Position numbers and translations under genes: made by a program. Positions 24,912 to 39,853 of a stretch of DNA of 52,084 nucleotides are shown here, one piece after another (positions within the stretch are counted from its first letter, which is position 1; the number at the start of each line of letters is the position of its first letter). This DNA comes from Candidatus Woesearchaeota archaeon. GTDB lineage: Archaea > Nanobdellota > Nanobdellia > Woesearchaeales > JAWBMQ01. A model generated the notes under the pieces. It was not told the origin of the DNA, did not search any database, and was given only the letters and a program-made list of their open reading frames with translations. The stretch covers positions 1 to 52,084 of the forward strand of contig JAWBMQ010000007.1 of the NCBI GenBank assembly GCA_038828875.1, written 5' to 3'.

Positions 24912-26879
24912 ATGAAAAATTTTGATTATTTTTTAAATCATAAAAAGGGTCAAGTTGTAATTTACATATTTATTGGAGTTATTATTTTGCTAGTTATACT
25001 TCTTTTTATATTAACTCGAGGTCAGTTAGCTCAAAATAAATTAGAGAATTATGAAAAAACAGTTATATCTGTTGATTTAGAGCCAATAAAAGTTTATGTT
25101 GATAGTTGTTTAAAAAAGGCAGTTAATGATAACCTTTTCGTAGCTTCTATACAAGGGGGTTATGTTGAAACATCTCAAATCTTTGAGTACATTGATTTCT
25201 TAAGTTTCAAAGTCCCATATTATTACAATTATTATTCTTCAAAAGCACCTTCTTTTACGTACCTTAAAACAAAGTTAGAGGAAAAAACTGCATCAGATAT
25301 TGTTGAATGTCTTTTAAATTTGAAAAAAGAACACGCTGTAATGATGAATTTTGATGAAGTAAATTTTGATTTAGAAAATATGAGATTGACTTTGTTCTTT
25401 ACTCACGATAATGTAATTGCTAATTTGAAATTAAAAACAGAAGCAAAATTGAAAGATGGAAAACTAAAGAAAGATACTTTTGAATATAGTTATAAATATC
25501 AAACTAATTTCTATAGATTTTATCTAATAGCAAAGCAAATCTCCGAAAAGGTAGCTCAAGAAAAGTTATTTGAAAAATTAACTTTAGAAGTAATTGCAGC
25601 AAATTTACCTTATAAAGGGTATCATTTTGGTTATAATTTAAAATTTCCTAAGCTTTCAGAAGCTAAGGAAATTTTATTTAATGCATTAACAGTCAATTTC
25701 AGATATATTGTTGTTCCTGGATTTCAGTATGTTGATATAAGAAATTCTCCAATTCCTGAATTTAGACAATATGCTGATTATTATCATGAAATTTTTAAAT
25801 TAGATATAGCGGATGATAAATTAAAAACACAAAATGTTAAAATTTCCTTTATGCCTATCAAAAATAGTATTAATAGTAAGAATTTTTATACTCCTGCTTT
25901 TTTTCAAGATGATGATTTCTATTTTTCAGTAAGTCCTACTTTGGGTGATTCTTATAAGCCAATAAACCTTAAGTTAGGTCAGGGAATTAAAGATTATGGA
26001 TATTTTCCAATTCTACCTGTTTATATTTTTGATTATCAATATTATGTAGATTATGCAATTTTAGTATCTTTGGAAAATACTAACACTAATGAAATATTTT
26101 ATTTTGGATTGAGACCTAAATTATCAACTGATACTTTTTTAAAAGATAAAAGTGAAGAAAGTTCTGATAAAATTGAATCAATAAAAGAGATTATTTCTTC
26201 TTTAGATAATCTTCCATCTTGTACAGGAAATGTAAGTTTATATCTCTTCGTAGAAGATGAATACACAGGAGATTATGCTAATGATGTTAATGTTTATTAT
26301 TACTGTGCTGGATTTGCTTGTTATTTAGGTAAAACTCAAATACAAAGCGATGGAAAAATTTACATAAATGCAAAGGTGCCTAGATGTTTAAATCCAACTT
26401 TTATCGCGGATTCAAAAGATTTCTATTTTGAAGAACATCAGTACAATGGAGAAGTTGTTGATGGCGATATTGTAACGATTTCAGGAGATAAACTGTATCA
26501 AGTTCCAGTTGTGTTTAGATTATACTATGATCCTGATAATTTAGAACGTTATAGAGATTTCAGTTTAGAAGAGTTAGCGCAAAATGAAAGTTTATTGATT
26601 TCAATACAAAATGATGTCATTTCAAAATCATATCTTTTCAATAACACTGTTAAGGAACCGAAAATTCATTTGAATACTTTGAAGAAGAAATATTCTTTGA
26701 TTGTTAGCTGGGTTGCTACTGATAAAGATGGCGATTCAATTATTATAGGTAATTATGCTGGCGAATTTGAAGCCATTGGTTTTGTAGCTGAAAAAATTAT
26801 AATTCCTATTTATATCTATGATGCATTGATTGAAGCTTATAAAAATAATAAGCTTAAAGAAGTTATTGTAGAAAGTTGA
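24912..26879 (+). CDS. Large pilin-like surface protein with class III signal peptide
   Basis: KKG-QVVIYIFIGVIILLVILLFIL prepilin-peptidase-type leader; YVDSCL and QGGY; several Cys. Confidence 0.75.
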   Translation: MKNFDYFLNHKKGQVVIYIFIGVIILLVILLFILTRGQLAQNKLENYEKTVISVDLEPIKVYVDSCLKKAVNDNLFVASIQGGYVETSQIFEYIDFLSFKVPYYYNYYSSKAPSFTYLKTKLEEKTASDIVECLLNLKKEHAVMMNFDEVNFDLENMRLTLFFTHDNVIANLKLKTEAKLKDGKLKKDTFEYSYKYQTNFYRFYLIAKQISEKVAQEKLFEKLTLEVIAANLPYKGYHFGYNLKFPKLSEAKEILFNALTVNFRYIVVPGFQYVDIRNSPIPEFRQYADYYHEIFKLDIADDKLKTQNVKISFMPIKNSINSKNFYTPAFFQDDDFYFSVSPTLGDSYKPINLKLGQGIKDYGYFPILPVYIFDYQYYVDYAILVSLENTNTNEIFYFGLRPKLSTDTFLKDKSEESSDKIESIKEIISSLDNLPSCTGNVSLYLFVEDEYTGDYANDVNVYYYCAGFACYLGKTQIQSDGKIYINAKVPRCLNPTFIADSKDFYFEEHQYNGEVVDGDIVTISGDKLYQVPVVFRLYYDPDNLERYRDFSLEELAQNESLLISIQNDVISKSYLFNNTVKEPKIHLNTLKKKYSLIVSWVATDKDGDSIIIGNYAGEFEAIGFVAEKIIIPIYIYDALIEAYKNNKLKEVIVES

Positions 26880-26893
26880 TTGGAGGGAATATT

Positions 26894-29800
26894 ATGAAGA
26901 ACTTCATAAAAAATCATTTATTGATGATTTTCATAATTTTAATACTTTCATCAGTAGTTTATTCGGAAGAAAAAGATTATGTTAAAAGTTTAAGTGTATT
27001 GAATTTTGAAATAGGTGCTCCTGGAATTGATTTTATGAGTTTTTCTATTGGTGCTGATGATGCTGAAAGAAAGATATTTATAATAAATAGATCAAATATT
27101 GTTTTTGTAATAAACTATGAATGTGATGAAACCTATGATAAAAATTTTACATTAAATTTATTTTTTATAGATAATCAAGGAAAGGTTTTAGAAGAATATC
27201 CTTCAAATTCTACAATTGTTCAATGTAATGAAAGTTCAAAAATACTAAGACTCTCTTTAGATATGAAAAAAGCAAAGAACAGAATAGGAACTGTAAGACT
27301 AAAAGCAACAGTTCCTGAAACAGAGGATTACGTTAAATTTGTTAATTTTAATCATTATTTCTACTATTTTGATCCTGATCTTTTCTCAGGAGATATTATT
27401 ATTTCTAAGTATAATGTTCTTGGAAAAGACGGAATGATTCCATTTAAAGTTAATTTTTTAGGTACTGCAAAACTTTTAGATATGAATGATACTCTTTTTG
27501 GAGATAATCAAAGAACCTTTGTTTTCGCAAATGTAGATGATATTTCAAAAGTTAGTTTTCAATTTGATGGAAATTTTTCTTTCAAAGATATTCCAGATGG
27601 TTATTATAAATTGAAGGCAGTATTTATTCCTTTGTTTTCAAACAAATCTATTGAAAAAGAGATAGAAGTTTCTATAGATACTACTCCTCCTAATTTAACT
27701 TCTTTGGAAATGAGTGATGAAACTACTTTTATTAATTTTTATAATTTAACTCCTTTTTTATCTCAAGATATTTTTGGTTCAAAAGATCATCCACTTGAAA
27801 GATATTATAATTTTATTACTATTCGCGGCGAATCATCTGAATTATTAAAAAAAGTAACTTATAAAGTTATGATTTTAGATGAGAATAATGAAGATGTTAA
27901 TAATATCTTAAAATTTTTAGAAAAGATTTCAACTAAAGCATTTATTTTTAATCTTAATGATAATTGGTCAGAGATAGAAGGTTCAGTAGAGTTAGAAGCT
28001 TCAGAAAAAAGTGATATTGTTTTTTCAGTTCCTAATTTAATCAAGACGTTATTAGAAGGATTTGGAATTTTTAAACAAGAATGTAAAATAGAGCATGAAA
28101 AAAAATTTAGCTGTACTTTTGGAATGTATGATTCCGTTTCTAATAATAATAAGCCAAATTTAGTTTTACTTACGTTTTGTGATTATAATGATAATTGTAA
28201 AATGAAACTTTTTTACTTTAATGTTCATGTTAATGATGATTGGAAAATAGATTTAGTTCAGCAGCAACCTAATATTTTGCCTTATGATGTTTTATTGTAT
28301 GGAGCTGATGGAACCATCATGGTTACTTTGAGTACTGATTTACCATATACTCAAATTAAATCTTTTAGAGCTAGATTCTCTGTTGAAGAAGATGAAATGA
28401 AAAAATATATGCAATTTTTAGAAAACATTAATTTGGAAATTCCAAGTATTAATGCAAATACTCCTGGTTTGTATAATCCTAAAACAAAGCAAGTATCTTT
28501 GTTGATAAGATATAAAATTGGAGTTAAGAATCCAGATGCAATAGATTTTACTAAGTTACCTGATAATATTTTAGTGTATCTTAAAATTAAAATTACTGGA
28601 ATTGTTGAGGAAATAGGTGAAAAGGTTTCTGATATTGCAGTACCAATTGCTTTTAGGATTGAATCTCCGTTAGTAAGTGCAAAATTTTTGAATCCTGAAA
28701 CTTTGAATGGTTATATTAAAAATCTTAATACTTCAATTAAGGTATTGAACGATAGCCTGAAATGGCTTACAGATGTTAGCAAATTTGCACATATTGCATG
28801 TATGGGCTTATTCTTTTCTTCATTGTTAGTTCCAGGAAATGAAGGTTTTGGAAATTTCCTATATCAAAGTATGATTGCTACTTGTGAAAGATTTGTATGT
28901 ACTCCTGTGCCAGATTCATGTAAAAATCTAAATATTAAGGATATGGGAACTTCAGGAATTTCCGCTGAATTTATTAAAGAAGATTCTCAAGGATATCGTA
29001 CTAAAGTAAATCTTTTTTTAAATTGTTTAGAAGCTAAAAAAGCATTCAAAGATATCTCTTGTGATGAAACTTCATCAGATCCTGTTTTAGTTGAGGAATA
29101 TTTTAAAAAAGATAAATCTGGTTTATATGAAATTGTTCAAAAGAAAGTGTTAATTTTACCTGAAGAACATAAAATATCAAACATGGATTTGATGTGTAAA
29201 GATTCTTTTAAATTAAAAGCTACATTTTTATTGAATTATATTGTAAATTTTGTTACTTTATGTCAATATAATAATGGAAATACAAGTAAAATTGATAGAA
29301 ATAAAATTTATACAGAAATAATTAATAATAATGTTGAATATAAGAAATTGACTTTTAAGGAATCTGAATTTAATAAATTTATAAATAGTAATTTTGTTTG
29401 TGAAAAAAATGTTAGTTTAAGTCAATGTGTTGCTTTTATGGAAACTAATGATCCTAATATAGAACCAATTGCTTACAATGCTACATCTGATTTTTGTAAA
29501 TCTTTGCTAAGTAATTCTTCTTTTGATTATGCAGAATTTACTTTAGGTGAATGTGATAAAGGAGCAACTTGTAATGTTTCATTAGCTGATGGAATTCTTG
29601 CAGCTTCATCAGATAGAATTAAAGTATGTAAAAAACCTGAAATTTTAAATGATAAAAAGAAAATCTTCAATAGTTTTGTAAGACAAGATCCTGAGTATCA
29701 TGGAAAAGGCGAATGTTATAATACTGAATACCCCGATTATCATCAATATAGATGTTTATTAAACATAGCAAATCCTCAAGAGCCTACTTACATAGGAGAT

Positions 29801-32245
29801 CCTGGTGAGAATTTTCTAAGCTCAATGATTTGTGGATGTTTTCCGACAGCAAGAGGATATATGGATGCATTAATCAAAAATTTAGAATTAATAAAAGAAT
29901 GTTTGGAATCTGTTAAAAGAGGAAGATATGCTGCTGGTCATTGCGAATTGATTGCGGGAATTTATGCTTGTGATTTTTTCATGGATTTAGGAATTTCAAT
30001 TTATGAATGGTGGAAAAGGAAGAATCCTGACAAGACCGTAGAATTAACGTTAGAAGATAAAGATAAGACGGAAGCTCAAAAGAAAGAAACTAAAAATTTA
30101 TTAGATTGTACTAAAGAAGAAAATAAAAATGATTATCGATGTAAAAAGTATGGCGATTTTACAATTAAAGCAGGGAATACTGCAAGTAATTATCATGTTA
30201 CCAATATAGTAACAGTAGCTACAGGTAATCAAGACAGAGAGTATGCAATAAAGCAGAGATATGCACAAACTCTTACTCAATTTTTAACACCTAATGTTAA
30301 ACATCAGTTCTGTGTTTTTTCAGTAACTGGTATTTTAACAGGAGTATGGGACTTTAGTTTGCTTTTTGATATTTATGGAAAAGAATATGAAAAAACTGCA
30401 ATTAGAAGAAATCCTCAGGCATGGTTGCCTGCAGGTTATTGGACAATCATTTCTTATGATCCTATAAAACGAATGCCTTTGGTAAGATATAATTTAGCTG
30501 TTCAAGTGGTAGGAGGTACTAAACCTGCATCCTATGAACTTTATCTTGTTTGTGATCCTGATGTTCAAGATCCTCCTGCTGAATGGTGTGGTGGAGAAAG
30601 ATTAGAAGTTTTAGTTAGAAAAGGATATATTTCATCTATGAAAACTTTAGCTAAGACTGAAGTAATAGATAATACAGAATTATTAAGTAATTCTTTGAGA
30701 TCCGATGATCTAAGAATAGAAAAATTCCTTTTCAACAAAGTAAAAATGGTAATGAAGTATTATGACGTTAATAAGGAAGCAGATGCTACTTGGTCCTCAG
30801 AGATAGTTTTAGATAAAAAAACAGCTATTGAGATTTGTGATATTGATCTAGATAGAAATGCAGCAGGTAAATATATGGGAGTTATTTGTAAAAATCCATA
30901 TTATGAATATGATCAAGGTATGGAAATTCCTAGAGGTGCAAGAACTGCATTTATTACAAGGCATAAAATACTTTCAGTACCTAAAGTAGGAAATCCAAAC
31001 GATGCAGAATTAAGATTAGGAGATTCTTTAATTATAGGATTTGAGTTTGAAGCAGATTCTACTCTTGAAAAACTAGAAGATTCTTTCTTGTTTGTTAATA
31101 TTAAAGGAGCTGATGGAAAGATAATAACTAATTTTACATATAAGATATATGGCATTAACATGAAGAAGTTTTTCAAGTGGACAGATGAAGAATCTATAAT
31201 AATTCCTTTAAAATTATATGATTTTAATTTGTCAAAGGAGACGTTAAATGAGATAGAACTATATTCCGCGGAAGCAGAGTACGAAATTCGTTCTCAAATT
31301 ATTTCTAGTTGGAATAAATTAAAAATACCAAAAATCTTAACTAGTAAGGGAGGAAACTTAGACCCACCTTGTAAGGATGTTAAGGATATAGTTGATGATC
31401 AGTTAAAAAGATGTGTTGATGTGTTTTTTAATGACACGATATGTCCATATAATGAAACCATTTTTGGGTTTGAGTGTAGGAATAATGAGCCGAAGATACC
31501 TAAAAAAATCAAAATAAAGATTAAAAAATCTTGCAACTTTCCAGAATATCAACTTAAAGAAGGAGATCTAATTTCATTCTGTTTGATTAACCCTGAAGGA
31601 AAAGATGAAACTAATGTTGGTTACACACACATTCCTGTTAAAAGAATTTCATTAGATCTTATACTTAATCATCCAATCATAGAATATGCTCAGTACTATG
31701 ATGTTAATAGAAATAATAAATTTGATCAAGCTGATTTTAGTTCTCCAGTAACTTATTTAGATTTTGAAAAAGGCGAAAGAGAGGTTAAAGGGAGTATAAA
31801 TGTAAAATTAGTTCCAGAATATGTGGATTTTCAAAAGAATCCAGGATTAGTAGATGTATATAAGCCAACTGTTTTGTTCCCATCTTCTGATAAGAAATTA
31901 GCAAATGATTCCTTTGAAATTTTACTAGTAATCCCCTATTCTAACACAACAATTCAAGTAGATGGACTATCTCTCTCAACGGATCCAATTACTTCACCAG
32001 GAATTTATTATATCCTTTTTAATAATTTGACTTTAATTAATTTAGGACAATTTAAGCTAAATATTACATATAAAATGAACAATATTAATTTTTCACCCAT
32101 TCAAAAAAACATAAAGTTCGATCCTTATGCAATGCAGAAAGACATAATTAATAATCGTACTAGCATAATGAAGATACTCTTAAACCAAGAGACTCCATCT
32201 AAATCTTCTAATTCTTTAAATATCGAACAAATTGTACAGAAGTAA
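26894..32245 (+). CDS. Giant cysteine-rich secreted/surface protein (about 1780 aa)
   Basis: Signal peptide after GGAGG RBS; Ig-like DTTPP boundary; many Cys; internal hydrophobic segments. Confidence 0.8.
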   Translation: MKNFIKNHLLMIFIILILSSVVYSEEKDYVKSLSVLNFEIGAPGIDFMSFSIGADDAERKIFIINRSNIVFVINYECDETYDKNFTLNLFFIDNQGKVLEEYPSNSTIVQCNESSKILRLSLDMKKAKNRIGTVRLKATVPETEDYVKFVNFNHYFYYFDPDLFSGDIIISKYNVLGKDGMIPFKVNFLGTAKLLDMNDTLFGDNQRTFVFANVDDISKVSFQFDGNFSFKDIPDGYYKLKAVFIPLFSNKSIEKEIEVSIDTTPPNLTSLEMSDETTFINFYNLTPFLSQDIFGSKDHPLERYYNFITIRGESSELLKKVTYKVMILDENNEDVNNILKFLEKISTKAFIFNLNDNWSEIEGSVELEASEKSDIVFSVPNLIKTLLEGFGIFKQECKIEHEKKFSCTFGMYDSVSNNNKPNLVLLTFCDYNDNCKMKLFYFNVHVNDDWKIDLVQQQPNILPYDVLLYGADGTIMVTLSTDLPYTQIKSFRARFSVEEDEMKKYMQFLENINLEIPSINANTPGLYNPKTKQVSLLIRYKIGVKNPDAIDFTKLPDNILVYLKIKITGIVEEIGEKVSDIAVPIAFRIESPLVSAKFLNPETLNGYIKNLNTSIKVLNDSLKWLTDVSKFAHIACMGLFFSSLLVPGNEGFGNFLYQSMIATCERFVCTPVPDSCKNLNIKDMGTSGISAEFIKEDSQGYRTKVNLFLNCLEAKKAFKDISCDETSSDPVLVEEYFKKDKSGLYEIVQKKVLILPEEHKISNMDLMCKDSFKLKATFLLNYIVNFVTLCQYNNGNTSKIDRNKIYTEIINNNVEYKKLTFKESEFNKFINSNFVCEKNVSLSQCVAFMETNDPNIEPIAYNATSDFCKSLLSNSSFDYAEFTLGECDKGATCNVSLADGILAASSDRIKVCKKPEILNDKKKIFNSFVRQDPEYHGKGECYNTEYPDYHQYRCLLNIANPQEPTYIGDPGENFLSSMICGCFPTARGYMDALIKNLELIKECLESVKRGRYAAGHCELIAGIYACDFFMDLGISIYEWWKRKNPDKTVELTLEDKDKTEAQKKETKNLLDCTKEENKNDYRCKKYGDFTIKAGNTASNYHVTNIVTVATGNQDREYAIKQRYAQTLTQFLTPNVKHQFCVFSVTGILTGVWDFSLLFDIYGKEYEKTAIRRNPQAWLPAGYWTIISYDPIKRMPLVRYNLAVQVVGGTKPASYELYLVCDPDVQDPPAEWCGGERLEVLVRKGYISSMKTLAKTEVIDNTELLSNSLRSDDLRIEKFLFNKVKMVMKYYDVNKEADATWSSEIVLDKKTAIEICDIDLDRNAAGKYMGVICKNPYYEYDQGMEIPRGARTAFITRHKILSVPKVGNPNDAELRLGDSLIIGFEFEADSTLEKLEDSFLFVNIKGADGKIITNFTYKIYGINMKKFFKWTDEESIIIPLKLYDFNLSKETLNEIELYSAEAEYEIRSQIISSWNKLKIPKILTSKGGNLDPPCKDVKDIVDDQLKRCVDVFFNDTICPYNETIFGFECRNNEPKIPKKIKIKIKKSCNFPEYQLKEGDLISFCLINPEGKDETNVGYTHIPVKRISLDLILNHPIIEYAQYYDVNRNNKFDQADFSSPVTYLDFEKGEREVKGSINVKLVPEYVDFQKNPGLVDVYKPTVLFPSSDKKLANDSFEILLVIPYSNTTIQVDGLSLSTDPITSPGIYYILFNNLTLINLGQFKLNITYKMNNINFSPIQKNIKFDPYAMQKDIINNRTSIMKILLNQETPSKSSNSLNIEQIVQK

Positions 32246-32292
32246 AGGTCTTAAATGTTGTTCAAATTAAAGAATTAATGAAACAATAACAG

Positions 32293-32490
32293 AAAATTTA
32301 TAAATTTCAATTTTCTTTACTTTCTGATGATAACAATGTCCTGGAGAAAAAATATAACATTAGGGTTATTGATTCCGTTTGCATTTTTTGGATTAGAAGG
32401 TAAGGTAGAGAAAAATTATCAAGTAGAAACAAAGGATGAATTAAAGATAGAAAAAACAATAAGTGGTTTAGAAAGTAAAGTATTTGCATT
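32293..32490 (+). repeat. Direct repeat block 1, copy 1 (promoter + leader of gene A); partner 35652..35849
   Basis: Shared AAAATTTATAAATTTCAAT TATA region; 32342-32490 reads identical to 35701-35849 (offset 3359). Confidence 0.95.
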
Positions 32491-33964
32491 ACCTTTGGTT
32501 CAAGTTAATTTAGAAAATGAATTTAAAAAGGTAGAAAATGAGTTTTTAGGTTTTATTAATTTGTATAACTCTTTAGAAAAAAATCCTGATAAAAGAATGG
32601 TTAAAATTACCACTAACTTATTGGGTATTGATCTCTCTTTTAATCTTTCTTCTATTGAGAATCTTCCGCATTATATTAAAGTGCCTGTTCTGGATAAAAA
32701 TTCTAATAAAATAGGAGAGAAATGGAAAATTAAATTTTCTGAAATAATAGTTGATAATGTAAATGTTTTTCCAATTAGTGAATTAAAGAAATATCTTGAT
32801 GAAGAATCGTTATATGTAGATGCTATACCTTATTTAGTGTATTCTCCAAACTTAGATCGTTTGTTACTTACACCCTATATCTATCCAACAATCTATGAAA
32901 TTACTATAGGAAATGAAAAGAGAACATTATTAAACAGAGTTCCTCTTGATTTCATTTATGGTATATTCAGAGTAGCATTAGCAAACAATTTAAAAAGTTA
33001 TTCTAATTTATTAGAAAACGTTTATATTCCTTTGAAGAGAAATAAAATTAATAATAATTTTGTTGATAATTTTGAAAAATATATCTTAGATAACAAACTT
33101 TTTTGTGATTTATTATTTTCAAATGTAGTGAATCAATACAATATAGAAGAACTCCATTGGAGAAATTATTTAATGTTTCCAATAAATAAAGGACTCGTAA
33201 AAAACAATTTTGACATTAATCTAGATAATCAACATAATCCAGTTTCTTCATTGATGAAAATTGAAAAAATTTATGGATACTTGTCACCTAAACAAATATC
33301 AATTCTAAACCAAAATACTAATTTTTCAATTTGGGATTATAACAATAAATGGAGTTATGATAAGTATGAGCAATTTTACTCAAGATTAAGGAGTAAGAAT
33401 AAGGATTTAGAGACAATGATAGATCAATGGATAGATAAAGAGATTTCAATTTATGGAAAGAATTTAAATCAGACACAAATACAGAACATAAAGAACAATA
33501 TGAAAGTAGCAATAGCAGTATACAATGATAAGATGACTCAGTTTGCAGAGGATTCTATAAAAAAGTTTTCTAATATTACAAATGAATTTTATGTAAAACT
33601 TATGGATACACATACAGGTGTTAAATATGTTGTTTCAATATCAAATGTTTCTCCATTGCTTGCTTTTTATGCTCAATATTTTACTGCATTTAATCATATA
33701 ATATCAAACTCTGGATATAGTGAAAAATTAAGGAATAAATACAATATCAATGGTCTTCTTACTTTTGAGATATTTGGATTTTGGTTTGATGCAGAAGAAT
33801 TTTACGAAAAAAAATATCTTCCAACAATGGAAAAAATTATAAGAAATCATCCCGCAATAGCTTTACCACCATTATTCTTTAAAGGAAATGAATATTTGAA
33901 TAAATTATGGAATGAGCTCTATAGTCCTTTATATGATAAATATATAAAATATTTTTACGAATAA
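32327..33964 (+). CDS. Exported protein of unknown family, type A copy 1
   Basis: Hydrophobic leader; NIEELHWRNY motif; paralogue of 35686..37260. Confidence 0.85.
   Translation: MITMSWRKNITLGLLIPFAFFGLEGKVEKNYQVETKDELKIEKTISGLESKVFALPLVQVNLENEFKKVENEFLGFINLYNSLEKNPDKRMVKITTNLLGIDLSFNLSSIENLPHYIKVPVLDKNSNKIGEKWKIKFSEIIVDNVNVFPISELKKYLDEESLYVDAIPYLVYSPNLDRLLLTPYIYPTIYEITIGNEKRTLLNRVPLDFIYGIFRVALANNLKSYSNLLENVYIPLKRNKINNNFVDNFEKYILDNKLFCDLLFSNVVNQYNIEELHWRNYLMFPINKGLVKNNFDINLDNQHNPVSSLMKIEKIYGYLSPKQISILNQNTNFSIWDYNNKWSYDKYEQFYSRLRSKNKDLETMIDQWIDKEISIYGKNLNQTQIQNIKNNMKVAIAVYNDKMTQFAEDSIKKFSNITNEFYVKLMDTHTGVKYVVSISNVSPLLAFYAQYFTAFNHIISNSGYSEKLRNKYNINGLLTFEIFGFWFDAEEFYEKKYLPTMEKIIRNHPAIALPPLFFKGNEYLNKLWNELYSPLYDKYIKYFYE
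33356..33555 (+). repeat. Direct repeat block 2, copy 1; partner 36625..36824
   Basis: Near-identical 200 bp at offset 3269 within otherwise diverged genes. Confidence 0.92.
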
Positions 33965-33975
33965 AAGGTGAAAAA

Positions 33976-35523
33976 ATGAAGATATCAGATCTAAAAAAAG
34001 AAATTGTCATCTTTACGTCAGTTCCTTTTTTATTTTTCGGATTAAATGGGGAAGTACAAAATAATTATAAAATAGATTTCTCTCTTGAAACTCAGATTTT
34101 TGCTAGTGAATTTTTTTATGATTTACATAAAGATAAGGATCTAGAAAGCAGAATAAGATTTGCTCAAGATTTAGCAGCACAAACTTTAAAACTTATAGAA
34201 GATTCGAAAAATCCATACTTTGCACTTATTAATAAATTTTTAGATATGAAATACATAGAGAAAGTTTCGAAAGACAACAAGATTCCATTTTCTGTAAATA
34301 TGGAAGGATTTAATGCTTCGATAGGTTTTTACAATGGATACATAGGCTTGACTGACGAAATAAACTATGAAAAACTCAAAAATATACTACCTGTTGGAGC
34401 AGTTTATAGAATAAGTATCGTGAAGGATTTCACTTCAGGAAGGTATTATGATATTGATACGCGTTTAGTGCAACGTCCTTTTTCGGATTTTTCTAATAGA
34501 TTTTGGCCTTATGTTATTGAAAGAAAAGAATCACGTTCTTATGATTATGTTAAAAAATTAGCTGCATTATCAAACAATTTGAAATTTTATTATCATGTTC
34601 GTGATTATTTATCAGAAGATCAAAGAAAAAAATTTGATGAGAATCTTTTTAGAAGCTTACAATTTCATACTTTAACTTCATCTTTGATAAGATCCTATGT
34701 TTTGGTAGAAGGAGTATATAACATAGAGATGATTCATTGGGCGAACAGGGCAAATTATTTAGATATATATAGTTTTATGCATTCAAACAGCTTAGATAAT
34801 GTAGTATCAAAGATTCAGGAAGCAAGGAAATTTTATCAATTTCCAGATGATATAATTACACCAGTAGAATTTTCTAATAATCCGCATAATTTGCTTTTTA
34901 TAGTAGAGCAATTTTATCAATTATTAAATAAGGATTCTTTAGAAGAAATTATGAATAGAACTAAAGGGTTGTTTTTGGATACGGATTCATTGAAATACCT
35001 TAAAGATAGTTTGGGTTATGATGATCAGAAGATTTTAGACTACTATGATTCGATGAATGATCAAACAAAATCAGATTTAGAAAGTTATGCTAAAAGATTT
35101 GAAAAATATGGAAAATCAAATGAAGTTAAAGAACTGTTAATTTTATTAAATTTAGAAATGGATAAATATATGACTGGTTCTTTATTGTTCTTAGGAAATT
35201 TAAATTTTGGATTCTATGAAAAATTGAAATCATCAGAAAAAAATGAATTTTTAAGGCAAGCAGTCAATACGATCAATGACATATTTAATGTTTCAGGATA
35301 TGCAGATTTTAACAAGCAAGGATTATGGTACAATGCACAGACATTCATAGTAAGGCATATGAATAATGTGAAAAATTATCATCAGAATAAGATTTTTGAA
35401 TTAGAAAAAGATTTTTACTTTGGATGCGAGCATTTAGGAAATTGGAAGAGGAGATATGTGGATATAGTGTATCCAGTAATAATGGATAAAGATGCCTATG
35501 GAGTTATAGAATATATTAAGTAA
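33976..35523 (+). CDS. Exported protein of unknown family, type B copy 1
   Basis: GGTGA RBS; leader VPFLFFGL; NIEMIHWAN motif; paralogue of 37257..38810. Confidence 0.85.
   Translation: MKISDLKKEIVIFTSVPFLFFGLNGEVQNNYKIDFSLETQIFASEFFYDLHKDKDLESRIRFAQDLAAQTLKLIEDSKNPYFALINKFLDMKYIEKVSKDNKIPFSVNMEGFNASIGFYNGYIGLTDEINYEKLKNILPVGAVYRISIVKDFTSGRYYDIDTRLVQRPFSDFSNRFWPYVIERKESRSYDYVKKLAALSNNLKFYYHVRDYLSEDQRKKFDENLFRSLQFHTLTSSLIRSYVLVEGVYNIEMIHWANRANYLDIYSFMHSNSLDNVVSKIQEARKFYQFPDDIITPVEFSNNPHNLLFIVEQFYQLLNKDSLEEIMNRTKGLFLDTDSLKYLKDSLGYDDQKILDYYDSMNDQTKSDLESYAKRFEKYGKSNEVKELLILLNLEMDKYMTGSLLFLGNLNFGFYEKLKSSEKNEFLRQAVNTINDIFNVSGYADFNKQGLWYNAQTFIVRHMNNVKNYHQNKIFELEKDFYFGCEHLGNWKRRYVDIVYPVIMDKDAYGVIEYIK
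34708..34936 (+). repeat. Direct repeat block 3, copy 1; partner 37995..38223
   Basis: Near-identical tract at offset 3287. Confidence 0.92.
35275..35523 (+). repeat. Direct repeat block 4, copy 1; partner 38562..38810
   Basis: Near-identical 3' ends of B and B' (about five substitutions by eye). Confidence 0.92.
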
Positions 35524-35685
35524 ACTTTTTGAATTGAGTTATCAAATTAATTAGTATCAAGTTTACAATTTTTAGATTTAGGAGATAATGAATTAAAAAT
35601 TATAGATGAAAATTAATTTTTTATAATTTAAAGCTATTTAAATTTTATAAAAAAATTTATAAATTTCAATAATATTCACTTTCTG

Positions 35686-37260
35686 ATGATAAAAATGTCA
35701 TGGAGAAAAAATATAACATTAGGGTTATTGATTCCGTTTGCATTTTTTGGATTAGAAGGTAAGGTAGAGAAAAATTATCAAGTAGAAACAAAGGATGAAT
35801 TAAAGATAGAAAAAACAATAAGTGGTTTAGAAAGTAAAGTATTTGCATTGCCAAAAATAGAATTAACGGAAGAGGCAATAGCAGCAGAATTTAAAAAAGC
35901 ACGTGATGAACATGACACATATTATTTTGATTTATATAATTATTATTTTCATCCATTATATCGTACTGAAAGAGCTGAATTCGCACTATATTTTGTTGGA
36001 ATTGGAGAATTTCTAAGTATTAGGTCTTATGAAAAATTACCGATTTTTGTTAAGGTTCCAGTATATGATCAAAATAAAAATAAAGTAGGAGAAAGATGGA
36101 TGGTTAAACTTAATGAATTTTCAAACAATGAAATTAAGAAATATATTTCAGAAGATTCGTTGTTAGTAGAAGCAGTACCATTTTTAGCAAGTTCTCTATA
36201 CTATCTTCCTGAATTGACGTATTATTATGGGGTATTCAGAATTGCGTCAGCAAATATCGCTAAGGGGTATTCAAGAGCGATGGAAGCGGTATATATGCCG
36301 TTAAAAAGGAATAAAATAAATAGTAGCATAATAAGGAATTTTGAAGTATTAATATTTGATAATCAAGAATTAAAGAATTTTTTAAATGTAATGCGCATAC
36401 AAGAGCCGAATGTAGAAGAGTTGCATTGGAGGAATTATCTTTTGTTTCTAGGAAATAAAGAATTAGCGAAGAATTACTTTAATCTAACCTTAGAGAATGT
36501 GAATTCCCCGGTGTCTTCATTTGGGAAGATGGAGAAGATATATGGATATTTATCACCAAAGTTAGTATCGATATTGAATAATTTAACGAACTTTTCAGTA
36601 TTTGAGCCGAATGCGAGATGGACGTATGATAAGTATGATCAATTTTATTCAAAGTTAAGGAGTAAGAATAAGGATTTAGAAACAATGATAGATCAATGGA
36701 TAGATAAAGAGATTTCAATTTATGGAAAGAATTTAAATCAGACTCAGATACAGAACATAAAGAACAATATGAAAGTAGCAATAGCAGTATACAATGATAA
36801 GATGAATCAGTTTGCAGAGGATTCGCTAAAGAAATTAACGAATTTTGCAAGTGAGTTTTATGTAAAGACAATAGACACACATACAGGAATAAAGTACGAG
36901 CCAGGTTTACCAGGAGCAACTCCATTGTTATCATTTTTCAAGCAATATTTTACTGCATTTAATCATATAATAGTGAATTCAGGATATAGCGAAGAGTTAA
37001 GGAAGAAATACAATCTTAGCGGAGCAATTACGTTTGAAGTATTAGGATTTTGGTTTGATGCAGAAGAATTTTACAAGACGAAGTATTTGCCTACGCTGGA
37101 GAAGGTGATGAGGAGTAATCCAGTAATTAGTTTAGAACCTTATTATTTTACTGGGAGTGAAGAGTTAAACAAGTTATGGTATGAGCATTATAAGCCATTT
37201 TATGAAAGGTATGTAAAATATCTTGATGTATATAAATTAGCAGAGCAGAAGGTGAGGTGA
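35686..37260 (+). CDS. Exported protein of unknown family, type A copy 2
   Basis: Leader near-identical to 32327..33964; NVEELHWRNY. Confidence 0.85.
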   Translation: MIKMSWRKNITLGLLIPFAFFGLEGKVEKNYQVETKDELKIEKTISGLESKVFALPKIELTEEAIAAEFKKARDEHDTYYFDLYNYYFHPLYRTERAEFALYFVGIGEFLSIRSYEKLPIFVKVPVYDQNKNKVGERWMVKLNEFSNNEIKKYISEDSLLVEAVPFLASSLYYLPELTYYYGVFRIASANIAKGYSRAMEAVYMPLKRNKINSSIIRNFEVLIFDNQELKNFLNVMRIQEPNVEELHWRNYLLFLGNKELAKNYFNLTLENVNSPVSSFGKMEKIYGYLSPKLVSILNNLTNFSVFEPNARWTYDKYDQFYSKLRSKNKDLETMIDQWIDKEISIYGKNLNQTQIQNIKNNMKVAIAVYNDKMNQFAEDSLKKLTNFASEFYVKTIDTHTGIKYEPGLPGATPLLSFFKQYFTAFNHIIVNSGYSEELRKKYNLSGAITFEVLGFWFDAEEFYKTKYLPTLEKVMRSNPVISLEPYYFTGSEELNKLWYEHYKPFYERYVKYLDVYKLAEQKVR

Positions 37261-38810
37261 GAAAGATGAAAAATTTAAGGAAGGAATTAGTGATATTTAC
37301 AACAGTGCCATTTTTATTCTTTGGGGTTAATGATGCAGTAGAGAGGAATTACAAGAGAGAAATTCCTATAGAGAGTAAAGTTTATGCATCAGAATTTTTC
37401 TATGATTTGCATAAAGACAAGGATTTGGAGAGTAGATTAAGATATGCACAAGATTTAGCGGCACAGACGCTAAAAGTAGTAAAGAATTCGAAAGATCCCC
37501 AGATACAATTATTAAATAAATTTTTAGATACTAGTTACATAGAGAAAGTTTCAAAAGATAACAAAATTCCTTTTTCAGTAAATATGGAAGGTTTTAACAT
37601 ATCTATTGGTTTTTACAATGGCTACATAGGTTTGACAGATGAGATAAATTATGAACAATTAAAGAACAATATTCCGGTAGGAGCAGTATATAAAATAACA
37701 CTAGTAAGGAATATTACAGAAAATAGGTATTATGATATTTTAGCGAAAGCATTTCCAAGAGAGGGATTATATCCATTTGATTGGCCACTTAAAGGATATC
37801 GTGTTGAGGTAGTCTTCAAAAGGCCATATGATTATCTTACATCATTAGTGGCATTATCAAACAATGTTAAATTTTACTTTCATGTAAAGGATTATTTAAC
37901 AGAGGGTCAAAGAAAAAAGTTAGAAGAAAATGTATTCAAGACTGGAGTATTTCATGGATTAAGTTCAGCATTAATAAGATCTTACGTTTTAGTGGAAGGA
38001 GTATATAACATAGAGATGATTCATTGGGCGAACAGGGCAAATTATTTAGATATATATAGTTTTATGCATTCAAACAGCTTAGATAATGTAGTAGCAAAGA
38101 TTCAAGAAGCAAGGAAGTTTTATCAATTTCCAGATGATATAATTACGCCAGTAGAATTTTCAAATAATCCGCATAATTTGCTTTTTATAGTAGAGCAATT
38201 TTATCAATTATTGAATAAAGATTATTTAGAAGAGATAATGACAAGGACAAGAGGTGAATTTATAGATAATGATTCATTGAACAAATTAAAGCATAGTTTA
38301 GGCTATGATAATCAGAAGATAGAGGAATATTATGGGAAGTTAAGTGATCAAGCGAAATCGGATTTAGAATCATATGTTAGGAGATTTGACAAATACGGAA
38401 AGACTAATGAAGTAAAGGAGATGTTAATTTTGCTTAACTTAGAGATGGATAAATTAATGACAGGTTCATTATTAATGCTAGGGAATTTAAATTTAGGATT
38501 TTACAATGTATTAAAACCAGCAGAGAAAAAAGAATACATAAGGCAAGGGGTAAGTACAGTAAATGACATATTTAATGTTTCAGGATATGCAGATTTTAAC
38601 AAGCAAGGATTATGGTATAATGCACAGACATTCATAGTAAGGCATATGAATAATGTCAAAAATTATCATCAGAATAAGATTTTTGAATTAGAAAAAGATT
38701 TTTACTTTGGATGCGAGCATTTAGGAAATTGGAAGAGGAGATATGTGGATATAGTGTATCCAGTAATAATGGATAAAGATGCCTATGGAATTATAGAATA
38801 CATAAAGTAA
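37257..38810 (+). CDS. Exported protein of unknown family, type B copy 2
   Basis: Paralogue of 33976..35523; start may be ATG 37266 after GGTGA. Confidence 0.85.
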   Translation: MRKMKNLRKELVIFTTVPFLFFGVNDAVERNYKREIPIESKVYASEFFYDLHKDKDLESRLRYAQDLAAQTLKVVKNSKDPQIQLLNKFLDTSYIEKVSKDNKIPFSVNMEGFNISIGFYNGYIGLTDEINYEQLKNNIPVGAVYKITLVRNITENRYYDILAKAFPREGLYPFDWPLKGYRVEVVFKRPYDYLTSLVALSNNVKFYFHVKDYLTEGQRKKLEENVFKTGVFHGLSSALIRSYVLVEGVYNIEMIHWANRANYLDIYSFMHSNSLDNVVAKIQEARKFYQFPDDIITPVEFSNNPHNLLFIVEQFYQLLNKDYLEEIMTRTRGEFIDNDSLNKLKHSLGYDNQKIEEYYGKLSDQAKSDLESYVRRFDKYGKTNEVKEMLILLNLEMDKLMTGSLLMLGNLNLGFYNVLKPAEKKEYIRQGVSTVNDIFNVSGYADFNKQGLWYNAQTFIVRHMNNVKNYHQNKIFELEKDFYFGCEHLGNWKRRYVDIVYPVIMDKDAYGIIEYIK

Positions 38811-38864: not shown

Positions 38865-39230
38865 ATGGCAACCTTAATAATTTTAGCAACAACAGGAAAA
38901 GGTGCATGGAATAGAATTTTTAAGTTGCTTAATGTGTTTGATTGGGAAAAAGTTTTAGTTATTACTAACAAATTCGGTTATGAAAAGTTGGAATTCAAAG
39001 AAAGTAAAGTAGAAAAAATAGAAATAAATTTTAATGCACCATATGATTATGTAATAAATGAGATTAAAGAAAAATTGAAGAATTATAATTTAACTGAAGT
39101 TGCTTTGAACATTTCTTCAGGAGAAGGAAAAGAGCATGTAGCTTTAATTGTAGCATTAATAAAATTAGGAGTGAGTTTACAATTTGTGGATTTAGAAGAC
39201 AATGAATTAAAGATAATAGGAAATGATTAA
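38865..39230 (+). CDS. Small Rossmann-like protein, possible stand-alone CARF domain
   Basis: Beta-alpha pattern TLIILATTG...EKVLVIT...VALNISSGEGKEHVAL resembles CARF motifs; ORF is solid, fold is inferred. Confidence 0.5.
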   Translation: MATLIILATTGKGAWNRIFKLLNVFDWEKVLVITNKFGYEKLEFKESKVEKIEINFNAPYDYVINEIKEKLKNYNLTEVALNISSGEGKEHVALIVALIKLGVSLQFVDLEDNELKIIGND

Positions 39231-39853
39231 TTTTTTCCGTAATATTCTCTTATAGTTTCAATAACCGAATCCTCTAGATGTTGGTTTTTGTTAGAAATTC
39301 CAATTATGTATATATTTTTACCATCAGTTTTGTAGAAAATTCTTGCTCCGTTTCTACTTCTAGCATAAAAAACTCCTTTTGTTCCTTTTAACATTTTATC
39401 TCCTAATTCAGGAGAGTATTTTCCATTTATTGGTTGACTTTGAAGTCCGTAAAACTCTTTAGTTACTGTATCTAAAACATCTCTTCTAAAATTGTAATCT
39501 TCCATTAACTTTTGAGCGATTTTTCTTAAAGATTTTACTTCCATAGCATTGTAAATTGAACCATTGTTAGTTGAAACCCATTGATCTAATTCAGCAAGGT
39601 TATATTTTTTTACAATATCTTCTAAATTAAATTCTTCTTTGTATTTTGCTAACAAAATTAATAAAACAAAAGAAAGAGTGAAAAATATTAAAGACAAAGG
39701 ATTAAAAGATTGATCTAGATTTAGCATTACGAAATTTCCAGTTATTGATTCTATGCTATTTGCAACAGAAACCAAAAAACCAAGCACAAGAAAACCAATT
39801 ACCAAACTTTTCAAAAATAAAATTTTTTTCATATTAAAATATTGACTTTTCAA
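39227..39853 (-). CDS. Two-TM membrane protein with C-terminal RelE/ParE-like domain
   Basis: Two hydrophobic helices flanking SITGNFV; C-terminal LKGTKGVFYARSRNGARIFYK...IYIIGISNK. Start may be the ATG of MKKILF. Confidence 0.6.
   Translation of the reverse strand: MKSQYFNMKKILFLKSLVIGFLVLGFLVSVANSIESITGNFVMLNLDQSFNPLSLIFFTLSFVLLILLAKYKEEFNLEDIVKKYNLAELDQWVSTNNGSIYNAMEVKSLRKIAQKLMEDYNFRRDVLDTVTKEFYGLQSQPINGKYSPELGDKMLKGTKGVFYARSRNGARIFYKTDGKNIYIIGISNKNQHLEDSVIETIREYYGKN

Follow-up and report, generated by a model that had tools for sequence, protein, structure and literature searches.

Tandem A-B gene pairs of an orphan protein family in a Woesearchaeota archaeon: candidate envelope proteins

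Introduction

DPANN archaea depend on contact with other cells, and the contact molecules are thought to be among their lineage-specific hypothetical membrane and secreted proteins. One contig of a Woesearchaeota archaeon raises a question of this kind: what are four similar genes that stand in tandem and resemble no recognised family, and what might their products do? The window analysed here is contig JAWBMQ010000007.1 of assembly GCA_038828875.1 (52,084 nucleotides (nt), positions 1 to 52,084), one of the 10 contigs (C7) of an 890,776-bp genome with about 25% G+C. The stretch is present, whole or in part, in 7 public DNA runs from 4 hot-spring metagenome studies. An earlier note, made without database searches, had described positions 32327-38810 as an A-B-A'-B' array of an exported protein family. 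Our analysis suggests that the array consists of tandem bicistronic A-B operons of an orphan, genus-restricted family, and that the products may be co-transcribed, membrane-anchored or secreted envelope proteins. We place this reading at slightly better than even (a probability of about 0.55). The data show how the genes are built and related, how they were duplicated, and their purifying selection, mosaic identity and narrow distribution, whereas topology, co-transcription, surface role and any association of A with B are parts that we infer.

Results

Four intact genes of one family

The array was found as described, as four intact, co-directional open reading frames (ORFs) on the + strand that encode 514-545 amino acids (aa) in the order A-B-A'-B':

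32327..33964, + strand: gene A, 545 aa; leader at residues 1-24 (hydrophobic segment 9-24), variable alpha/beta region, helical C-domain at about 207-544
33976..35523, + strand: gene B, 515 aa; leader of the A type, variable N-region, helical C-domain
35686..37260, + strand: gene A', 524 aa
37266..38810, + strand: gene B', 514 aa when started at ATG 37266, or 517 aa in the mechanical ORF call, which starts at GTG 37257

Global alignment gives 63% identity for A and A', and B and B' are identical at 393 of 521 positions (75%). The start of B' is most likely ATG 37266 rather than GTG 37257, because the Shine-Dalgarno-like run GGTGAGGTGA lies upstream of it and the database gene call P0004 starts there. 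The strain variant P0003 is 93% identical to B, and the variant P0002 is near-identical to A', from which it differs at 6 positions. All ordered motifs that had been listed as common to A and B types correspond to invariant columns in the alignment of the four proteins, both in the leader (P17, F18, F20, F21, G22, V27, N30 and Y31) and in the rest of the protein (A217, N220; N272, E274, H277, W278; P305, E313, Y316 and L319).

The relationship between A and B types is faint in pairwise comparisons. BLASTP aligned A with B at E 0.004 (106 of 523 positions identical, 20%) and A' with B' over the leader only (E 4e-5), and single-sequence phmmer gave no A-B link at E <= 1. Comparison of the A-type and B-type alignments with hhalign gave P 6e-5, spanning A 395-533 and B 387-495. 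A profile was also built from proteins outside the array, namely the products of two genes on contig C2 and one on contig C8 of this genome, one metagenome protein and a C-terminal piece from a genome of the same genus. This profile matched A' (9.8e-20), B' (3.5e-11), A (4e-9) and B (6e-8), and the next of the 983 ORFs of the genome scored 0.19. A profile of B types only matched A' at 1.2e-9 and A at 6.4e-5. On these comparisons A and B types are true but distant homologues, since the profile matches go beyond chance, though the pairwise evidence is thin. The part common to both types is mainly the helical C-terminal domain and the leader.

In the family tree, the B types and P0007, a protein of the same-genus genome G001, form a clade with support 98/98. 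A/A', the B types with P0007 and the A-like C-terminal piece of G001 together form one clade with support 95/98. The single ancestor of A and B types proposed earlier is upheld by the latter clade. By this grouping the A/B split predates the separation of the two genomes, and the A/A' and B/B' duplicates arose in this lineage.

Promoter-like elements and operon signals

A 19-nt element occurs twice in the window (0 expected by chance), about 27 nt upstream of both A-type starts, and each B-type ATG is preceded by a GGTGA run:

32293..32311, + strand: promoter-like element of unit 1; its TATA-like TTTATAAA (32297-32304) precedes the A start codon by about 27 nt
35652..35670, + strand: promoter-like element of unit 2, an exact 19-nt copy of 32293-32311
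33965..33971, + strand: Shine-Dalgarno-like AAGGTGA, starting directly after the A stop codon and ending 4 nt before the B start
37251..37260, + strand: Shine-Dalgarno-like GGTGAGGTGA, inside the 3' end of A' (stop TGA 37258-37260) and ending 5 nt before ATG 37266

We take the element to be an archaeal TATA box, and by archaeal promoter geometry the A mRNA would presumably be leaderless or near-leaderless. Positions 32276-32493 and 35635-35852 are 93% identical over 218 nt, and with the exact 19-nt element in both units this agrees with the suggestion that the promoter was duplicated along with the pair. The gap between the A-type stop and the B-type ATG is 11 nt in unit 1 and 5 nt in unit 2. 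A short gap together with a Shine-Dalgarno-like run is the pattern expected of internal genes in an archaeal operon. A and B may therefore undergo coupled translation from a single transcript. A scan for sigma-70 promoters and terminators (57 sites versus 50.6 expected, 0 terminators) is uninformative for an archaeon.

An orphan family confined to about one genus

The count of further copies in the genome and its relatives, which had been proposed as a check, gave seven members in this genome (G000), namely A, B, A', B' and three genes on other contigs:

Contig C2, 121451-124445, - strand: tandem family pair, 539 aa with leader and 451 aa without leader, 19 nt between them
Contig C8, 14632-15840, + strand: single family gene, 402 aa; a 145-aa ORF with a lipobox-like AIGC sits 10 nt upstream

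These seven genes, each of about 1.2-1.6 kb, make up about 1.2% of the 0.89-Mb genome. Relatives were found in G001 and on one metagenome contig. A profile of eight members, searched exhaustively against 1,835,955,588 representative proteins, returned 8 proteins at E <= 0.001. Five of them (P0004, P0002, P0005, P0006 and P0009) come from this genome or near-identical strains, two (P0007 and the fragment P0010) from G001, and one (P0008) from another organism. The full-length version of P0008, 536 aa, is encoded on an 1840-bp metagenome contig that is too short for gene context; this was the one contig found in a scan of metagenome contigs, and a scan of genome contigs with P0008 gave no relative. 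Protein A had matches in 2 of 41 genomes, and the family profile in 2 of 401 genomes sampled from the same order; both times these were G000 and G001. Each of the word-indexed homologue searches returned only 2 proteins, in all cases from this genome or from strains near-identical to it. The exhaustive profile search showed no relatives beyond one genus and one metagenome organism.

That the earlier note recognised no known domain is in line with the database searches. Pfam gave 0 families for B and B', and the best matches of A (0.0094) and A' (0.057) were far below cut-offs. NCBIfam gave 0 families across the 8 family members scanned, PHROGs nothing better than E 0.015, and PADLOC 0 for A, B, A' and B'. 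P0007 had a stray sub-threshold match to PADLOC WH_III-A (E 0.007) with no stretch passing alone. Against 177,635 distinct PDB sequences the best match of the family profile was interferon (E 0.0043 over about 85 residues), which looks like noise. The family is an orphan and is confined to about one genus.

Mosaic identity and selection

Across 3143 aligned nt the two units share 74.9% identity, which is unevenly spread. High-identity tracts, defined as at least 95% identity between units over 60-nt windows, are given in unit 1 coordinates:

32316..32497, + strand: tract 1, 5' end of A; A residues 1-40 have 98% nt identity and a synonymous divergence (dS) of 0.046
33380..33561, + strand: tract 2, A residues about 352-412
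34696..34946, + strand: tract 3, B residues about 241-324, in which the ExxHW and NNP motifs lie
35268..35523, + strand: tract 4, B residues about 431-515

Together the four tracts cover 871 of the 3143 aligned nt. Runs of identity reach 149 nt, and 2000 column shuffles gave no run longer than 48. Within the tracts dS ranges over 0-0.33, and elsewhere it is 0.6 to >2 or saturated. Because near-identical tracts alternate with diverged stretches, the pattern fits recent gene conversion between the units after an old duplication.

The four genes are under purifying selection. The ratio of non-synonymous to synonymous divergence (dN/dS) is below 1 in every computable window of A/A' and B/B' (0.05-0.89), and about half of the windows, mainly in the C-terminal parts, have values of 0.05-0.15. 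The ratio peaks towards the N-terminus, at about 0.5-0.6 for A 41-200 and 0.89 at B 160-192. B and its strain variant P0003 differ at 35 positions, 22 of which lie within residues 151-200 and 351-400. These values bear on the idea that the ORFs are decaying or non-functional duplicates without a current role. The extremely narrow family and the division of an A-like gene of the same genus into ORFs of 289 and 307 aa would agree with decay. However, all four ORFs are intact at 514-545 aa, seven paralogues are retained in a genome of 0.89 Mb, and the dN/dS values largely refute it, so that decay is highly improbable.

Duplication history and gene C

A fifth gene belongs to the history of the array:

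38865..39230, + strand: gene C, 121 aa, a small stand-alone CARF/Rossmann-like protein
35529..35627, + strand: relic (pseudogene) of gene C, about 95 nt long and directly after B, comprising the last ~22 codons of C; 74% identical to 39143-39236

The relic translation ends in LQFLDLGDNELKIIDEN and gene C in LQFVDLEDNELKIIGND; 17 of the last 22 residues are kept, and stop codons lie upstream. From this relic after B we conclude that the duplicated unit was promoter-A-B-C, and that C was later deleted from unit 1. The duplication of the A-B pair with its promoter, as earlier described, is borne out, but the unit was not A-B only, as C was included. In G001, RNR is followed in order by a membrane protein of 207 aa, a homologue of C, a single B-like gene, a kinase (presumably PfkB-like) and, at the contig edge, an A-like C-terminal end. 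Judged from this gene order, G001 carries a single unit in the corresponding neighbourhood.

Two details of G001 are recorded here as separate observations. Its A-like gene (L007 1423-3230, - strand) is divided between two ORFs, one of 289 aa that has the leader and one of 307 aa that has the conserved C-domain, with 14 nt between them. The frame of the second ORF is open for 355 codons and overlaps the first, which may reflect a frameshift, an error in sequencing or a true split. A C-terminal end of 59 aa at the edge of contig L008 is identical and could be a second copy or an assembly overlap.

Gene C also suggests another function for the array, in which the four products would be N-terminally tethered membrane proteins that face the cytoplasm and act as effectors with C in a signalling or defence module. 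Four CARF models of PADLOC match gene C (E 9e-5, 2.9e-4, 6.3e-4 and 1.1e-3), and its Pfam matches, Csa3_N (0.026) and HFX_2341_N (0.023), are both below cut-off. It belonged to the duplicated unit, and in G001 too it adjoins a B-like gene. The adjacency may, however, be merely inherited gene order, because synteny with G001 extends over the entire neighbourhood, RNR and the 207-aa gene included. Unit 1 lost C yet kept A and B. No C paralogue lies near the C2 and C8 family loci, and the best other phmmer match to C in the genome (E 0.0045) falls in an unrelated contig region. PADLOC matches none of the family apart from the sub-threshold match of P0007, and the charge around the leader, described below, favours the opposite orientation. 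Such a module is very unlikely.

Leader sequence and predicted topology

All four array proteins have 2-3 Lys/Arg residues at the N-terminus, followed by a single hydrophobic segment at residues 9-25 and none elsewhere. All full-length members but one share a K/R-rich N-terminus and a hydrophobic stretch of 14-16 residues. The leader core of the array, (I/V)-P-F-x-F-F-G, is conserved, and other members have the related cores IPLFF, MLPLFL and LLPTLLG. Leaders resembling those of the array are found in P0007, P0009, P0005 and the 536-aa metagenome member. A loose pattern of the core matched 34 of the 983 ORFs, some of them in the N-termini of other membrane proteins. Among these matches no family-type leader was seen beyond the four array proteins, and the leader is therefore not read as a genome-wide sorting signal.

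Lys/Arg residues precede the hydrophobic stretch and a net acidic stretch follows it, and this charge balance favours an N-in, C-out topology. The export proposed in the earlier note is plausible from the K/R-rich N-terminus and the hydrophobic stretch, and anchoring or secretion is a prediction from sequence.

Two known classes of leader were considered and rejected. In the consensus of class III signal peptides, which are type IV pilin-like, the cleavage motif [K/R]-[G/A/S] immediately precedes the hydrophobic stretch. At this junction neither the A leader (WRKN-ITLGLL) nor the B leader (LKKE-IVIFTS) has G/A/S, so the proteins do not fit an archaeal type IV pilin-like identity. A lipoprotein or twin-arginine translocation (Tat) substrate was rejected as well, as none of the four leaders has a Cys or an RR pair.

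Fold searches

In the proposed check by structure prediction and Foldseek, the models were weak overall, and Foldseek found no match in PDB or BFVD at E <= 0.001. The AlphaFold models were built on shallow family alignments and have a mean predicted local distance difference test score (pLDDT) of 44.5 for A and 51.9 for B. Residues 300-470 of B reach pLDDT 63-95 per 10-residue block, mostly above 75. The A and B models agree in the order of their elements, with helices followed by beta-hairpins and a long helical domain. In a fold search with VIA-align, the best match of the A model (mean pLDDT 44.5), and of the HEAT/ARM-type comparison, was the Scc2/NIPBL HEAT region 6zz6_D (Z 8.8, root-mean-square deviation (rmsd) 4.0, 198 aligned). 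That of the B model was Pex8 8rqt_A (Z 7.3, rmsd 3.6, 135 aligned). Both resemble the array proteins in an all-helical C-terminal domain of stacked helical hairpins; HEAT/ARM-type proteins are built of such hairpins as regular tandem repeats. However, VIA-align has a background of Z under about 8-13 for helical proteins, the two scores lie within it, sequence identity is 4-9% and the biology is unrelated, so that the resemblance is generic only. The ESM Atlas gave no usable feature match for A or B (own models pLDDT 0.34 and 0.31; structural rows with template modelling (TM) scores < 0.35). On these models there is no fold match above the helical background. A complex prediction of A (32-545) with B (32-515), run on family alignments and without controls, gave ipSAE 0.00 in both runs and speaks neither for nor against binding.

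The matches of the B model point to a further reading, in which the proteins would be extracytoplasmic enzymes, for example polysaccharide-acting ones with a helical toroid-like C-domain, and the conserved Asn, Glu, His, Trp and Gln would form a substrate site. Nine of the 50 listed matches of the B model are alpha/alpha-toroid glycoside hydrolases or polysaccharide lyases (Z 5.2-6.7), including chondroitinase, glucoamylases, hyaluronate lyases, GH76 and a family-2 pectate lyase, and the residues conserved in the family are rich in Asn, Gln and aromatics. Such enzymes have a closed (alpha/alpha)5-6 toroid with a catalytic cleft. These Z scores are, however, below the helical background, they come from a model with a mean pLDDT of 51.9, and toroid enzymes are absent from the rows of the A model. 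The Foldseek results and the Pfam results, the latter read to E <= 1, add no enzyme family, with 0 Pfam families for B and B' and best matches far below cut-offs for A and A'. The conserved residues at the ExxHW stretch also speak against an enzyme, as described next, and we regard it as unlikely and retain the toroid matches as no more than a lead.

The ExxHW motif

ExxHW had been described as invariant and as possibly catalytic or metal-binding, and this reading found no support. The motif is kept in the A/B clade only, including P0007 of G001 (NLEVIHW). In 4 of the 5 other family sequences that cover the stretch (P0006, P0008, P0009 and the 536-aa member) the H and W are replaced by aromatic Y/F and by N/Y, giving N-P/T-E-G-(I/F)-(Y/F)-(N/Y). 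In P0005 the site reads NIKGVQN and the Glu is also gone. A catalytic role is therefore unlikely, because the motif is not invariant in the family. N272 of A and N249 of B directly precede a predicted helix (273-286 in A), and the invariant Asn-Pro pair (N304-P305 in A, N302-P303 in B) likewise directly precedes one. Two conserved Asn in such positions are as helix caps would be, and the models suggest that N-x-E-x-x-H-W is a structural, helix-capping motif rather than a catalytic or metal site.

Metal binding of the di-iron carboxylate type was considered separately. This type has two ExxH motifs and further carboxylates on a four-helix bundle. It was rejected, as the proteins have only one conserved ExxH block and the H and W are replaced in P0005, P0006, P0008, P0009 and the 536-aa member.

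Neighbouring genes

The genes on either side of the array and gene C are the following:

24912-26879, + strand: 655 aa, no Pfam family; HKKGQ, then a 25-residue hydrophobic run (KKGQ-VVIYIF); stop overlaps the next start by 4 nt
26876-32245, + strand: 1789 aa, N-terminal signal-like segment, 40 Cys, no Pfam family; directly upstream of the array
39227-39853, - strand: 208 aa, two N-terminal hydrophobic segments; weak ParE-toxin-like C-terminal part (Pfam E 0.0084, below cut-off); same place in G001

The two upstream co-directional genes (24912..32245) encode exported-type products without homology to A or B and serve as context only. The N-terminus of the 655-aa protein presumably resembles an archaeal class III (type IV pilin-like) signal. 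The 1789-aa protein, a giant putative surface protein, has 27 N-x-S/T sequons versus 16.2 expected. The remaining window holds housekeeping genes.

Discussion

Our data favour the view that the array consists of tandem A-B operons of an orphan family whose products may function at the cell envelope. Each protein would begin with a K/R-rich N-terminus and a hydrophobic leader of 14-16 residues with a conserved Pro-Phe/Leu core. By the positive-inside rule, the bulk of the protein would lie outside the cell, with the leader either serving as a signal anchor or being cleaved as a Sec signal. The leader would be followed by a fast-evolving alpha/beta region and then by the family's defining part, a conserved C-terminal domain that is all-helical. 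A and B types split before the genus diversified, and the A-B-C unit with its TATA-like promoter was duplicated later in this lineage, with C deleted from copy 1. Gene conversion has since probably transferred tracts between the copies, and short patches continue to diverge. A, leaderless, and B, Shine-Dalgarno-led, would be made from one transcript. The two proteins might act as cell-envelope or surface proteins that contact a host cell or the environment, and the two units would provide two variant versions.

Several observations weigh against this view. The putative surface role draws on topology rules, neighbouring genes and analogy, and no RNA runs are listed among the public runs that contain the stretch. 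The 451-aa paralogue on contig C2 has no hydrophobic N-terminus, and the four leaders of the array lack a clear AxA-type cleavage site, a lipobox Cys and a twin arginine. N-glycosylation sequons are not enriched (6 in A versus 5.8 expected and 3 in B versus 4.0 expected), and there is about 1 Cys per protein. The paralogue on contig C8 stands without an adjacent family partner, so that pairing is not universal. No window has dN/dS above 1, and diversifying selection is therefore without support.

Gene conversion among paralogous surface-protein genes is familiar from host-associated bacteria, in which pilE/pilS, vlsE and msp2 vary in this way. The array may be likened to these systems in its clustered paralogues and mosaic identity, with conserved tracts homogenised and variable patches diverging. 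Unlike in these systems, neither copy in the array is truncated, and a promoter-like element precedes each of them. Silent cassettes were not seen in the array, and any programmed switching would be hypothetical.

Hypothetical proteins of hot-spring Nanoarchaeota with a single N-terminal transmembrane (TM) helix are described as carrying non-synonymous single nucleotide polymorphisms at significantly higher densities than other gene categories, and a role in host binding was proposed (Jarett et al. 2018, PMC6142677). These 'hypothetical external' proteins are similar to ours in belonging to a hot-spring DPANN archaeon, in the one N-terminal hydrophobic helix and in elevated non-synonymous variation over a purifying background. 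They are a category, not a family, with no known sequence relation to A or B, and the array differs from that category in that its A-B pairs are duplicated and show gene-conversion tracts. Archaeal families of lineage-specific hypothetical proteins are reported to be enriched in TM and signal predictions, and were suggested to take part in interactions of cells with one another or with their environment (Meheust et al. 2022, PMC9258230). The modules of that study resemble our family in being lineage-restricted and without Pfam or KEGG annotation. They are, however, conserved across major lineages and consist of short proteins, whereas the A/B family is confined to about one genus and its array members have about 520 aa.

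A more specific form of the envelope reading is that A and B join in a hetero-oligomeric complex at the surface, by which this DPANN archaeon recognises its host cell, and that the duplicated units, which gene conversion keeps partly alike but which differ in short hypervariable patches, give two host or ligand specificities. We consider this rather improbable. If it were true, the complex would be a new, lineage-born recognition system on a fold without a known relative. If the proteins are merely another orphan envelope family, the finding is ordinary for such a genome, as the kind is common in DPANN genomes. The family is an example of how narrow the distribution of a protein family can be. 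Because its genes are under purifying selection and arranged in pairs, and because the copies are partly homogenised while short patches diverge, the family is a concrete candidate for an envelope or host-contact function, with defined domains and variable patches.

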